Source: Eledone cirrhosa
Taxonomy: Eukaryota
Length of the DNA stretch: 64,000 nt
Direction of reading: 5' to 3'
NCBI GenBank assembly: GCA_964016885.1
Contig: OZ024743.1
Location: 33,046,001-33,110,000 of the forward strand
Part shown: positions 46,121 to 63,192 of the stretch, one piece after another
Layout of the letters: each line of letters opens with the position of its first letter
Position numbering within the stretch: the stretch's first letter is position 1
Position numbers and translations under genes: made by a program
The notes under the pieces: model-generated
What the model was told of the DNA's origin: nothing
Database searches by the model: none
What the model saw: only the letters and a program-made list of their open reading frames with translations

Positions 46121-47740
46121 CTACACAATTGTAGAAATCATACCACTGAATCGAACCAGGTCTGTCAGTCTCAGACATTGACAATCCATTCATCTCATGC
46201 AAGCATGGAAAGTGGATGTAAAATGATGATGATGGTAATGATAATGGCTTTTGATGAAGGCAACAATAACAAATATAATCAACACTGTAGATTTCAATTG
46301 AAACCATATATGATGGAAGTTTTAATCGTTAGATATTGTTGTTTTTATTGAGATATTACAGAAAATTAAGAGTGAGAATTATATATTAAATTACATGTTT
46401 CATTAGTTATAAACCATTAGCTTTATTTGTGTAAAATCAATCTCTTTATAAAACGATATTAATAAATTAAAAGGGCAAAATGTATATCGATACTTCGCAA
46501 TATGAATGGAAAATACATAAAATTTTATAAATATTTAATTTATCCTATTGTCTTTATGTTCTTGATCTATGTAGATCCTTCCAACCCTTGCTAGCAGGGA
46601 GAGCAGGCGCTAAAAGGATTGTATATATATATATATATATATCAAATTTGAAATTTTCCCAGTGCTTCTTAAATCAATCGCTTTCTTTACTCTTCTAGTT
46701 ACAGGCTTCAAATCTTCCCAAGAGATAGAATTGGCAGCTTGTAGCTCGTTAGTGTAGTGGTTAAAGCACTCACCAAGAAATTTGATTCCTTACAAGTGCC
46801 TTTGTCCATTATCTCTAGGGATACTTTACTTGATTTTCACAAATACTTTTTAGGGTGATCAACTATCATTATCTCTACATTAGGCAGCACAGATTTCAAA
46901 TTTCATACATCAATGTACAAGAGAATTTCCTCCATATGCACCGATGTTCTAATTATATATATATATATGTTTTCTAATATTAAATGTTGAGTATTGAATG
47001 TTTGACTTTGTATCATAAATCAGCTATTATTTGCTTGTATGTATGTATGTATATATGCATAACCCTATTACACATCTATACTCCATTCATGAATACTAAC
47101 ACTTCCAATCCCATCCATGCCTCTCATCCCAACTGCTAACTCAACCCAACATGACACAACTCAAGGTTTTCGCTCTCTCCCCCCTCTCTCCATCTCTATA
47201 TATCTCTCTCTAGATCCCTTCTCTGTCTGATGGTTCGACATCTCCCCGTCATCCTTCCTCTGTTCTCCCTTCCTTTTGCCTTCTTCTCCTTCTTCATCTA
47301 TCTCTCCCTTTCCCCTCTCCACGCTTCTCTCCCTCTCTCCATCTTTTTACTCACTCTTCACTATCCTGATGGCCTCCAAAAGCAACGGTCAATTTTTAAA
47401 TATATATATATATATATATATATATATATATATATATATATATATATATATATATATATATATACATATATATATATATATATACATATATATATATATA
47501 TACATATATATATATATATATACATACATATATACATATATACCTACATATATATATATATATATATATATATATACATATATACATACATATATACATA
47601 TATACCTACATATACATATACATACATATATATATATATATATATACATATATACATACATATATATATATACATATATACATACATATACATCCATATA
47701 TATATATATATATATATACATATATACATACATATATATA

Positions 47741-48342
47741 TGGTGGCTGCCAACTCGTTTACGGCCACTACTTTATATCCATGTAGGAGAACCCCTACCG
47801 ATGCGCTGAACGAGTGTGACTTTTTAGTCTAGCCAGCGACTTGAAAACTCTAGTACAAACACTACACCTGTGACAATGATTGACACACAGTGCTGGGCCC
47901 ATGGTACCATGTGACGACAAGTGCAGAGAGATCTCCAGATATAAAGCAATGCCTGTGCCGTGAAGCTTTTATAGTGAGCAAAGGCACTGCACAAAGCCAG
48001 TCCCACTCTCTTAACCAAGATGTTATTTACCAAAAAGAAGAACAAGTCAACATCATTGGATACCATCAGGGTTGCAGGTGTTATATCAGAGTTTTCCTTC
48101 TCCTAGAATTCTGCCTTGACAAAGGCTAAGAGGTCATCTCTCCCGGTGATTTTGGATGGCCATTGACTCTTACGAGCTCCTTTGCCCTTTGACAGGTTTT
48201 GTTTTTAGTCCTGCAGGATGTCCATAGTCACCCTCCTCACCAAGAAACCTTGGTGGGGTTGCCAGTTTAGTCGCCAACGACCCGACCATGGGACAGGTTG
48301 TACTGGGATACATGTTACCAGTAGCACCAACTGGTGACCTGA
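47741..48342 (-). mobile_element. Non-autonomous bipartite RTE derivative, copy A (~600 bp)
   Basis: Reverse complement of 62052-62659. Has the RTE 5'UTR motif ctaggagaaggaaaactctga and a 6-nt deletion (ctcgaa) in the 3' stem-loop. Confidence 0.85.
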
Positions 48343-48964
48343 GAAGTTGCACATTGTTTAATTGTGATTGGATGTTTGGTTTGAAATTGAGATCGGTATA
48401 TTAAAGATTGGAATTTGAACATTGTAAAATGTATATATTGCTAGAGGGTTATCTGTCGCATATTACATACACATGGGTGGAGGTGCATAAATGTATGTGT
48501 GTGCACACTCACTCAGAAGGTGCATTCCCTGTGTTGTTAATTGAAGGTCGAGGGTTTTTAGTATATATATGTAGATATGTGGGTTTGACTTTCATGCATT
48601 TGTGGCTGTTAAGTTGTGCATATCTGCAATCAAAAACTGCATGTGTAAGCCTGTACATTCACATCCATAATTCTTAGCTATATGCATAACTTAACAGCCA
48701 TAAATGCATGAGGGTTAGTCCTATATATTTGTATATATGTGCTAAGAACTTTTGATTTTCAATTGATAGCACAGGGAATGTGTTTTCTGAGTGAGTGTGT
48801 ATATATATGTGTTTATGTGCCTTTGCCTTTGTGTGTGTAATATGCGATGGATAATCTCTCTGGCAATATATATATTTAATAATGTTTAAATTCCAATTTT
48901 TAATATATTGATCTCAATTTTGAACTAGATATCTAATCATAATTGAACAATGTGTGATTTCTCA
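48340..48964 (+). repeat. Long inverted repeat whose mismatches are G.U pairs (arms 48340-48623 and 48680-48964)
   Basis: Base-by-base pairing of the outer ~50 bp shows only Watson-Crick or G.U pairs on the + strand, and the pattern continues by eye. The loop is 56 nt. Confidence 0.92.
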
Positions 48965-59288: not shown

Positions 59289-62051
59289 TATATATATATG
59301 TATGTATATATGTATATATATATATATATATATATATATATATGTATGTATATATGTATATATATATATATATATATATGTATGTATATATGTATATATA
59401 TATATATATGTATGTATATATGTATATATATATATATATATATATATGTATGTATATGTGTATATATATATATATGTATGTATATATGTATATATATATA
59501 TGTATGTATATATGTATATATATATATGTATGTATATATATATATATATATATATATATGTATGGATATATGTATATACATATATATATGTATGTATATA
59601 TGTATATATATATATATATGTATGTATATATGTATATATATATATGTATGTATATATGTATATATATATATATATATATATATGTATGTATATATGTATA
59701 TACATATATATATATGTATGTATATATGTATATACATATATATATGTATGTATATATGTATATATATATATATATATATATATGTATGTATATATGTATA
59801 TAATATATATGTATGTATATATGTATATATGTATATATATATGTATGTATGTATATATATGTATGTATATATATATATATATATATATATATATATATAT
59901 ATATGTATGTATATATGTATATATATATATATATATATGTATGTATATATGTATATATATGTATGTATATATGTATATATATATATATATATATATGTAT
60001 GTATATGTGTATATATATATATATATGTATGTATATATGTATATAATATATATGTATGTATATATGTATATATGTATATATATATGTATGTATGTATATA
60101 TATGTATGTATATATATATATATATATATATATATGTATATATATGTATGTATATATGTATATATATATATATATATATGTATGTATATATATATATATA
60201 TATATATATATGTATATATATGTATGTATATATGTATATATATATATATATATATGTATGTATATGTGTATATATATATATATATGTATGTATATATGTA
60301 TATATATGTATATATATATATATATATATATATATATATATATATATATATATGTGTATATATATATATATATATATATATGTATATGTATAGCCACCCG
60401 TCTGTTTCGTTCTTTGTACCTTTTACCCTTTCTCGTTCTTTGTACCTTTTACCCTTTCTAGCAGTCTCTCTCTCTGTTAGCCTCCTCCTCAACTTTCACT
60501 CACTCATTCTCTGTCACTACCTCTCCTCCTTCTCTTTCCTCCTGCTCCTTCAAGTTTGACCTGTGTGTAATTCTTTTCTCGCGCGGTCTTGGTCAAGCTG
60601 GTATGGAATTTTTTTCTCTCTCTTTCTTTCGTCTGCGACTTCACAAAACTTATGTTTACCGAATTTGTAGACCAGACCCCTTCTTCTTCTTCTTCTTTTT
60701 CTTCCCCCCCCCCCCATTAGACCTGTGCGAAATTCCTTCCTTGCTCACATTTCAACCAGGTCTGATGGTCTTTTGTCTGTTGTTCACGATTTCACCAAGT
60801 TTATATTCATAGAGATCTGGGACTTGTCTATTTCTTCTCACTTTCCGTTGCTTAAACCATTTTGTTTGTTACCCTAACGTCCCCTTTATTTACGTGTCCC
60901 AACGACTTTTTTTAGCCGTTGTTCGCACCAACCTGAGGCATATGGCCCTTAAAGCGATGAAATGCCTGGGACGGTTGGAGGGTCACTGATGAAGGACTTA
61001 CTTTTTCATATGCACCACCATTTGCAATGCGCAGCCATCATTATTATCATATATATATATGTATGTATATATGTATATATTTATATATGTATGTATATAT
61101 ATATATATGTATGTATATATGTATATATATATGTATGTATATATGTATATATTTATATATATATATGTATATATTTATATATGTATGTATATATATATAT
61201 ATGTATGTATATATGTATATATATATGTATGTATATATGTATATATTTATATATATATGTATATATATATATATATATATATGTATATATATATATGTAT
61301 GTATATATGTATATATGTATGTATATATGTATATATTTATATATATATATATATATATATATATATGTGTATATATATATATATATATATGTATATGTAT
61401 ATATATATATATATATGTATGTATATATATATATATATATATATGTATGTATATATGTATATATTCATATATGCATGTATATATATATATATGTATGTAT
61501 ATATGTATATATATATGTATGTATATATGTATATATTTATATATGTATGTATATATATATATATGTATGTATATATGTATATATATATGTATGTATATAT
61601 GTATATATTTATATATATATATGTATATATTTATATATGTATGTATATATATATATGTATGTATATATGTATATATATATGTATGTATATATGTATATAT
61701 TTATATATATATGTATATATATATATATATATATGTATATATATATATGTATGTATATATGTATATATGTATGTATATATGTATATATTTATATATATAT
61801 ATATATATATATATATATGTGTATATATATATATATATATATGTATATGTATATATATATATATATATGTATGTATATATATATATATATATATATATGT
61901 ATGTATATATGTATATATTCATATATGTATGTATATATATATATATGTATGTATATATGTATATATATATGTATGTATATATGTATATATTTATATATGT
62001 ATGTATATATATATATATATATGTATGTATATATGTATGTATGTATATATG

Positions 62052-62659
62052 TCAGGTCACCAGTTGGTGCTACTGGTAACATGTATCCCAGTACAACCTG
62101 TCTCATGGTCGGGTCGTTGGCGACTAAACTGGCAACCCCACCAAGGTTTCTTGGTGAGGAGGGTGACTTTGGACATCCTACAGGACTAAAAACAAAACCT
62201 GTCAAAAGGGCAAAGGAGCTCTTAAGAGTCAATGGCCATCTAAAATCACCGGGAGAGATGACCCCTTAGCCTTTGTCAAGGCAGAATTCTAGGAGAAGGA
62301 AAACTCTGATATAACACCTGCAACCCTGATGGTATCCAATGATGTTGACTTGTTCTTCTTTTTGGTAAATATCATCTTGGTTAAGAGAGTGGGACTGGCT
62401 TTGTGCATTGCCTATGCTCACTATAAAAGCTTCACGGCACAGGCATTGCTTTATATCTGGAGATCTCTCTGCACTTGTCATCACATGGTGCCATGGGCCC
62501 AACACTATGTGTCAATAATTGTCACAGGTGTAGTGATTGTGCCAGTTTTCAAGTCGCTGGCTGGACTAAAAAGTCACACTCGTTCAGCGCATCGGTAGGG
62601 GTTCTCCTACATGGATATAAAGTAGTGGCCGTACTCGAAAACGAGTTGGCAGCCACCAT
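62052..62659 (+). mobile_element. Non-autonomous bipartite RTE derivative, copy B
   Basis: The 5' part aligns with the RTE 5'UTR at 50660-50852. The 3' part encodes [16 protein letters not shown] (cf. RTE FGSLAGLKSHIRSQHC*) and ends ggccgtactcgaaaacgagttggcagccaccat. Confidence 0.88.
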
Positions 62660-63192
62660 GCATAACCCTCATTATGTATGTATGCATATATACAGCAAGC
62701 TAGTTGAGTTCTTTGGCACAAATTTCTTTGTTTGAATTCAAGCACCAAACCACGTATTTTAGTCTATTATAGCAGTCTTCCACTTTTTCATTAGAGGCAG
62801 AATGTGAGAATGGCAAGAACTGCTGGATATCTTATCCAGTAGTAATGGATAACACACACTGCATAGAGCTATCTTATGACTTGGGCAACCCTGCTGAAGA
62901 CATTTAATAGCCCAGTTATGTAAATATCTGCTGATATTACTTGTGGATGTAATATCTGCATTTGTGAAGTTATGTTGCAAAGAAAAGATATCGTCCAGGA
63001 GTTGAGATTTTTACTTTTATCTCTACCAAAACACAGCCACCGTCTCTGCTATTAACTAAAATGTGTGCACTCTGATCAGCTGATTGCAGCTGCATCACTG
63101 CAATTCGCCAGATTCATTGAGTGAGCTAGACATTGGCCAGAGAACGTTGACTTAATACCAGCAAACTTTGTTACTTTTATATTATATATACA

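Follow-up and report, generated by a model that had tools for sequence, protein, structure and literature searches.

An ADAR-type editing signature in the hairpin of an inverted retro-insertion of Eledone cirrhosa: probable fixation of an edited read-through RNA in DNA

Can RNA editing be written back into inherited DNA? The question is debated, and conflicting explanations of A-to-G substitutions at edited sites have been reviewed (PMC10209271; here and below, statements that carry a PMC number refer to selected passages of the papers concerned). It is raised by a block of repeats at 47055-62669 of a 64,000-nt stretch of Eledone cirrhosa DNA (the window: contig OZ024743.1, positions 33,046,001-33,110,000, forward strand). 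An earlier note on this DNA had described the block as a retro-insertion bounded by two copies, A and B, of one mobile element, with its 5' part inverted. As a structural description the note holds as a whole, on the strength of the duplicated target site, the alignment of A with B and the gap-free re-inversion of the 5' part; what it overlooked is the main feature, the hyper-editing of a hairpin whose arm mismatches are skewed 119:1. We consider it likely that a transcript which started in copy A and continued through to copy B underwent hyper-editing, and was then inserted by twin-primed reverse transcription.

The ends of the block provide the first part of the answer. The 12-bp sequence proposed to be a target-site duplication, or TSD, lies on the plus strand at 47055-47066 and 62658-62669, and nowhere else when both strands of the window were scanned; by composition, 0.004 copies are expected in the window. 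Some direct copy elsewhere exists for 7.7% of the unmasked 12-mers of the window; this 12-mer occupies both predicted ends. The right end of the block is, as claimed, the 3' terminus of copy B, whose final AT is common to the first 2 nt of the right TSD, and the last base of the left TSD (47066) is common to the inverted piece, a microhomology of 1 nt. When 47066-48339 is re-inverted and joined to 48340 it yields a single arm; between this arm and the reverse complement of 48666-49327 the alignment has no gap, and the two make a 1.3-kb hairpin. The continuity of the arm had been predicted, and holds if 47066 is counted with the inverted piece, since a break at 47067 leaves a 1-nt gap in the alignment; the template is thus continuous across the internal priming site. 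At the inversion junction (48340-48342) the 3-nt microhomology TGA, also predicted, fits both sides. Together the TSD, the re-inversion and the junction microhomology bear out the layout expected of twin priming, in which two TSDs enclose an inverted 5' part and, after it, a forward 3' part. Inside its TSDs the block measures 15,591 bp, or 6,845 bp without the two long interspersed elements (LINEs) nested in it, and the target is TATG-rich, like the usual surroundings of the A/B family. A self-complementary empty site was rejected as proof of flank continuity: the match is of 14 bp only, a length attained by 2-19% of random stretches.

Copies A (47742-48342, minus strand) and B (62052-62659, plus strand, with a terminal stem-loop) are non-autonomous RTE-like elements that would mark the 5' and 3' ends of the RNA, respectively. 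Their alignment has 581 matches and 18 mismatches, and their first base is identical. In sequencing run X21, 7,092 loose-ended reads leave the element at 48342 and enter a TATG-type repeat, and the same 3' end is seen in 4,386. These read ends indicate that both copies are full length and that the family resides in TATG/TA microsatellites, a setting that accounts for the position of A and B on either side of one nest; they also place the RNA 5' end, which had been put in copy A, exactly at the 5' end of the family. Among the 18 differences are 7 for which the family letter is known, and at all 7 it is the letter of B, from which it follows that A aged separately.

The term SINE (short interspersed element), which the earlier note had used for A and B, finds no support in the RNA polymerase III sense. 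ARAGORN found 0 tRNA genes; no B box was found, and A-box-like matches number 4-5 per 200 nt with one mismatch permitted; no tRNA-, 5S- or 7SL-derived head matched Rfam at E up to 1. Both copies comprise a part like a LINE 5' untranslated region (UTR) and a LINE 3' end, without an open reading frame (ORF): in B the body (62243-62449) is 68% like 50626-50852, in the 5' UTR of the nested LINE 1, and the final 34 nt match the LINE 1 3' end at 28 of 34 positions. This anatomy gives A and B the appearance of bipartite non-autonomous LINEs. Their partner we take to be of the RTE clade, from the clade's anatomy of a single APE-RT ORF and no ORF1. The 5' end of copy A could be either a promoter start or a ribozyme cut, and any promoter would presumably lie within A; an HDV-like (hepatitis delta virus-like) ribozyme at the A/B 5' end gave no Rfam match and 2 descriptor hits, where 20 shuffles gave 0-7. 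A search for the Ceph-domain motif found it absent.

The evidence for editing lies in the arms of the hairpin. Arm 1 is split by the inversion into a distal part (47066-47399, minus strand) and a proximal part (48340-48639, plus strand); arm 2 (48666-49327, plus strand) has 36 A-to-G sites and is one member of a multicopy family, the other members of which have A. Over 631 aligned columns, counted on the re-inverted strand, the arms differ by 119 mismatches of G.U type, 1 of A.C type and 11 transversions, 6 of which adjoin the loop (p 2e-34); the skew is 58:1 in the inverted piece and 61:0 in the forward piece. The window has 60 repeat alignments with a length of 100 bp or more and an identity of 70% or more (the distal arm pair, below 70%, was scored separately). 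Just one of the 60 is skewed, and it is this hairpin. Four other self-palindromes in the window, imperfect ones that served as controls (13763-14158, 25439-25540, 43163-43399 and 43949-44149), are balanced, and copy A, which adjoins the hairpin but is unpaired, carries no hyper-editing (5:5 against copy B).

The changed adenosines, 117 of the 430 scored in the hairpin (about 27%), are chosen by their 5' neighbour: 65 of 158 are changed after T and 47 of 144 after A, as against 3 of 54 after C and 2 of 74 after G. Depletion of upstream G is the ADAR motif (PMC4365171, PMC2873906). The 3' neighbour has no significant effect (p 0.43; G 18/71, A 44/146), with neither a G nor a clear A preference. 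A downstream G is reported to be preferred in mammals and A in invertebrates, which lack the G preference (PMC5625713), and the missing 3' G preference of the hairpin agrees with the invertebrate pattern in that one respect. Clustered change of a single class together with upstream-G depletion is the signature of ADAR; the direction of change is equally plain, and the enzyme itself would presumably be an ADAR.

When did the editing occur? On the assembled plus strand the changes read T-to-C in 47066-47399 and A-to-G from 48340 onward. In its assembled orientation the inverted piece is a direct repeat of arm 2 and is unable to pair with it. The polarity thus flips with a piece that cannot pair as assembled, which means that editing preceded the inversion and took place on the uninverted RNA. 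An RNA intermediate, inverted during insertion, had been proposed on structural grounds, and finds independent support in the A-to-G changes, which follow the re-inverted strand in both pieces. The arms have only about 6 non-edit differences in 600 positions, where about 13 would be expected at the distance between A and B (Poisson 0.02); by this measure the insertion is probably younger than copies A and B.

The direction of change can be read from other copies of the family. Reads of four of the 23 listed runs (X1, X4, X8 and X21) were aligned to 47742-49562. Half of the 40 difference rows examined (20) fall in the hairpin, 13 of them at G.U pairs; in all 13 the window has G and other family copies have A, and none lies at the T partner. 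Across the whole aligned stretch the four runs show 47, 50, 23 and 51 G>A places and 9, 10, 10 and 9 T>C places. Because it is the window that has G where other copies have A, the change was from A to G, the opposite of what C-to-T deamination predicts; the C-to-T reading was rejected on this direction and on the neighbour context. Parts of 47742-49562, mostly small shares, occur in runs under 16 organism labels, and X4, from another organism, contains the A/B family as well as the hairpin family. The small shares (0.10-0.18), which make up 16 of 20 rows with any match and of which X8 alone was aligned, were given no weight as evidence. No RNA run was among those listed, a result that bears neither way on expression.

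The hairpin is a multicopy family, with summed depths in X1 mostly between 340 and 12,900, as against 8 for the contig at the inversion junction. This X1 contig (48315-48646) reproduces 332 letters, edited bases and junction included, with 0 differences; it is unbranched, at depth 8.14, and so reveals no second edited copy in that sample. It argues against misassembly at the inversion junction but is not independent evidence. Of the breakpoints at which misassembly is to be considered, that at 48340 is matched by a contig, though one that falls short of the 31-letter rule for bridging, and 47066 and 62658 lie outside the aligned stretch. The same contig lends no support to the proposal that two non-autonomous copies act as a cargo-carrying cassette, family sequence standing at hundreds to thousands where the junction stands at 8. 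The block appears to be single-copy, and so a one-off transduction, in the one sample from which copy number was judged and with the proviso that contigs cannot prove the absence of further copies. In X21 the depth at 48352-48412 (0.21) is too low to judge presence of the insertion in other individuals.

Arm 2 is followed by the 3' piece of the hairpin family (49329-49562, plus strand), Penelope-like and lightly A-to-G skewed in reads and alignment. An X4 contig (49113-49390, 7 differences) spans the boundary between the two, which would accordingly appear to be one family unit. In the unpaired piece 49328-49527, 7 of the 11 listed rows are G>A, 6 of the 7 following T or A if the family letter is counted, and this suggests lighter editing of the Penelope-like piece. 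A hammerhead-like motif, read by eye at about 49376-49416, gave no Rfam match; its GAAA core reads AAAA in the window, position 49413 being A here and G in the family. Single hammerhead motifs cleave poorly (PMC4209133), so that, with the core altered as well, self-cleavage of the RNA does not have to be assumed. Penelope-like elements typically have inverted copies and hammerheads (PMC3846280, PMC4209133), and inverted copies of this kind would explain a near-perfect palindrome in the donor. No Penelope-like ORF lies near the hairpin family. A second Penelope-like copy is found at 15812-16046 on the minus strand; its hammerhead-like core is intact by eye and Rfam did not detect it.

What chain of events could have produced such a block? 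The donor would have been a TA/TATG nest that held copy A, a near-perfect 1.3-kb Penelope-like inverted repeat, further arrays and copy B. A transcript would have run from the first base of copy A, where a promoter may reside, to the 3' end of copy B; both of these ends are visible in the block. The inverted repeat would fold into a duplex of about 630 bp, in which an ADAR, to judge from the signature, would have deaminated some 27% of the adenosines. An RTE-like LINE protein would recognise the 3' end of B, nick the TATG-rich target and begin synthesis from a match of 2 nt. From the other target strand, synthesis would begin within arm 1, at a match of 1 nt, and reach the RNA 5' end, and the two complementary DNAs (cDNAs) would join on 3 nt; the geometry of these steps is read from the junctions, and the enzymology would be that of the twin-priming model. 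With inosines read as G, about 120 edits would have become fixed in DNA. LINE 1 probably arrived after the block was inserted, LINE 2 may have been in the RNA, and the RNA would have measured 6.8-15.6 kb.

That an edited RNA entered DNA is common to this reading and to two others, and of that much we are highly confident. The hairpin might have been edited and retro-inserted into the donor in an earlier round, for example by Penelope-like machinery, the later A-to-B insertion having copied DNA that was already edited. Arrays that are nearly unedited would fit such a history, as would a family unit made of arm 2 and the Penelope-like piece (the X4 contig); against it, the unbranched X1 contig leaves no edited donor visible in that sample, and the handful of non-edit arm differences leaves little time between rounds. 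We regard two rounds as improbable. Template jumping, in which reverse transcriptase copied a free copy-B RNA and then jumped to a separate edited RNA (A, hairpin and arrays), would mean that A and B were never on one transcript. In its favour, copy B is complete, and a jump at its 5' junction would leave no visible trace in the microsatellite there. However, a TATG repeat before the 5' end is simply the usual setting of the family, as the 7,092 X21 reads show, and all five microsatellite arrays of the block have one common motif and, after re-inversion, one polarity; jumping is in our estimation less probable still.

The remaining rivals would remove the edited RNA altogether. In one, the skew arose in DNA or by selection, through C-to-T deamination of one strand, an error-prone polymerase with a WA motif or selection for G.U wobble, and the block moved as DNA before being inverted. 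Polymerase eta, too, is known to prefer WA, which lends the idea some support, and the re-inverted layout (TSD, A, cargo, B, TSD) would also fit integration of a circle into a resident copy. Yet the reads polarise the changes A-to-G in all 13 listed rows at G.U pairs; 119 of 131 mismatches belong to one class, cluster where the arms pair and change strand at the inversion; the inversion breakpoints would have to coincide by chance with the TSD edge and the first base of A; and selection for wobble does not predict a bias in the 5' neighbour. Such an origin is already largely refuted and we hold it very unlikely. An assembly or sequencing artefact has something to recommend it in about 3 kb of microsatellite in the region and in a read check that covered one of the three junctions, but a misjoin would yield neither a unique TSD at both ends nor a strand-flipping context bias, and the X1 contig repeats edited bases and inversion junction letter for letter; of all the explanations this one seems to us the hardest to credit.

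Several observations weigh against insertion of a single edited A-to-B transcript by twin priming. The TA arrays are self-complementary yet almost unedited, even in an uninterrupted tract of about 31 units at the hairpin base, and they hold few G outside their stereotyped motif, where RNA exposed to ADAR might be expected to carry edits; that later slippage erased them is only a guess. The duplications among the arrays call for three or more nested events around the LINEs, a number that is large if every one of them postdates the block and that would mean a first cDNA of more than 5.6 kb, up to 14.3 kb. The target 3' end is complementary to the internal priming site over 1 nt only. The X1 contig extends only 25-28 letters to the left of the junction, less than the 31 of the bridging rule, and may come from the source sample; the aligned stretch lies to one side of the inverted arm piece, and the rows examined are 40 of 165. 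The empty allele and the donor locus are predictions of the insertion model. Metagenome contigs scanned by pattern for the right flank and for the base of the arm, and viral contigs scanned for the element, gave 0 hits each, which carries no weight, as this animal would hardly be expected in such collections. Separately, the spacing of G in the TA arrays was dropped as a trace of editing, being that of a stereotyped 4,8,n motif.

Twin priming is the model that Ostertag and Kazazian are said to have put forward in 2001 for 5'-inverted L1 insertions. Like twin-primed L1 and SVA insertions, the block has a TSD, an inverted 5' part, a forward 3' part, a second TSD and microhomology at the inversion junction; unlike them, it ends in an RTE-like 3' end and a microsatellite-type tail instead of poly(A), and its ends are non-autonomous. 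Among known SVA transductions is that of SVA_F1 H10_1, whose transcript continued into an AluSp lying downstream (PMC3287187). There, as here, the RNA would start in one non-autonomous element, end in another and be mobilised in trans; in this block both ends come from one family, the cargo is several kilobases of repeats and one copy is evident. Bipartite non-autonomous RTE LINEs are represented by RTESINE1/2, WALLSI3, MAR4_MD and Bov-A (PMC5786205). Copies A and B resemble them in having a 5' UTR-like body, a LINE 3' end, no ORF and no tRNA head, and by analogy would probably be transcribed by RNA polymerase II; they match none of the named elements, and are only 68% like the LINE 1 5' UTR. 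The TSD length most common for RTE is 10-12 bp (PMC6007223), and RTE1 often inserts at full length (PMC5389967).

For the editing, the nearest parallel is ADAR-hypermutated avian retroviral DNA, that of Rous-associated virus as well as of avian leukosis virus (review, PMC12925331), in which A-to-G clusters in an inverted repeat were likewise fixed by reverse transcription. Those are infectious retroviruses, whereas the block is a non-LTR (long terminal repeat) insertion in an assembled animal genome, with a cargo of cellular repeats. APOBEC-edited LTR retroelements (PMC4866542, PMC2873906) similarly preserve a deaminase signature in a retroelement copy, but the vertebrate changes are G-to-A on cDNA, in contrast to A-to-G on RNA concentrated in a duplex. 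Among titles and selected passages of the open-access literature we found neither an RNA that had been hyper-edited by ADAR and became part of an animal genome through non-LTR insertion, nor twin priming by RTE. In sum, the block behaves like a 5'-transduced, 5'-inverted LINE insertion, each part of which has precedent, an edited germline LINE insertion being the combination for which none was found in that literature.

The locus offers a single-molecule case for the debate: some 120 edits fixed at once, and an inversion that dates the editing before the insertion. If the reading is true, then LINE templates encounter ADAR in cells of the germline or early embryo, an inosine-rich duplex of 630 bp can be reverse transcribed, and twin priming extends beyond L1. 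A screen that requires an assembly only follows from it, for inverted repeats with one-strand G.U arm mismatches and upstream-G depletion. Whether this is a general route is a more tentative matter. It is possible, although we incline to doubt it, that LINE retrotransposition of ADAR-edited read-through RNAs recurs in this lineage as a path from edit to DNA, that G.U-skewed palindromes form a searchable genome-wide record of germline ADAR activity and specificity, and that paired non-autonomous RTE-like copies in microsatellite nests are the usual vehicles, the three being taken jointly. The cargo consists of repeats, and no gene function is implied.

The block contains five arrays. Array W (47400-47741, minus strand), a TA/TATG microsatellite after the 3' end of copy A, has its motif inverted relative to the rest. 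On the plus strand are array X (49563-50049), array Y (within 54860-55309, after a short unique piece with a small hairpin at 54954-54982), array Z (59290-60392), the first part of which duplicates the end of X and then Y, and array V (61049-62051), which adjoins the 5' end of copy B. The array motif has 4 minus-strand matches in the inverted piece, 56 plus-strand matches in the forward piece and 0 wholly inside the flanks; one motif straddles the left TSD, by eye.

LINE 1, with its TSD, spans 50043-54859 on the plus strand (element 50094-54808). The TSD is a perfect repeat of 51 bp (50043-50093 and 54809-54859), and the 3' junction is of the same kind as that of copy B, with which, as with copy A, it shares 5' UTR and 3' end motifs. 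A single intact ORF of 1181 aa (50989-54531) encodes APE-RT and C-terminal C2H2 zinc fingers; its closest database protein, an unnamed one, has 63% identity, and PDB and atlas matches gave only generic reverse transcriptase (RT) names. The intact frame is that of a possibly active family. LINE 2 (55310-59289, plus strand) has an APE-RT-PHD ORF, the PHD finger following the RT domain, with one in-frame stop (55921-55923) and a (GAT)n tail. It is flanked by a microsatellite duplication of about 600 bp with common rare variants (49563-50049, 54992-55309 and 59290-59880), which may be either an unusually long TSD or an earlier duplication of the array. The left copy of this duplication is interrupted by a 183-bp piece and then by LINE 1, which gives the order of events: first came the duplication or LINE 2, next the short piece, and last LINE 1. 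A 655-bp segment at 60393-61047 (plus strand) has a 3' end like that of LINE 1 and no other clear match in the window, and perhaps represents a further non-autonomous family. Truncated relatives of LINE 2 lie at 35662-36388 and 63205-63726.

Elsewhere in the window an open RT reading frame of 1141 aa, with a weak zf-RVT match, occupies 723-4145 on the minus strand; upstream of it is a 338-bp tandem duplication (4682-5346).

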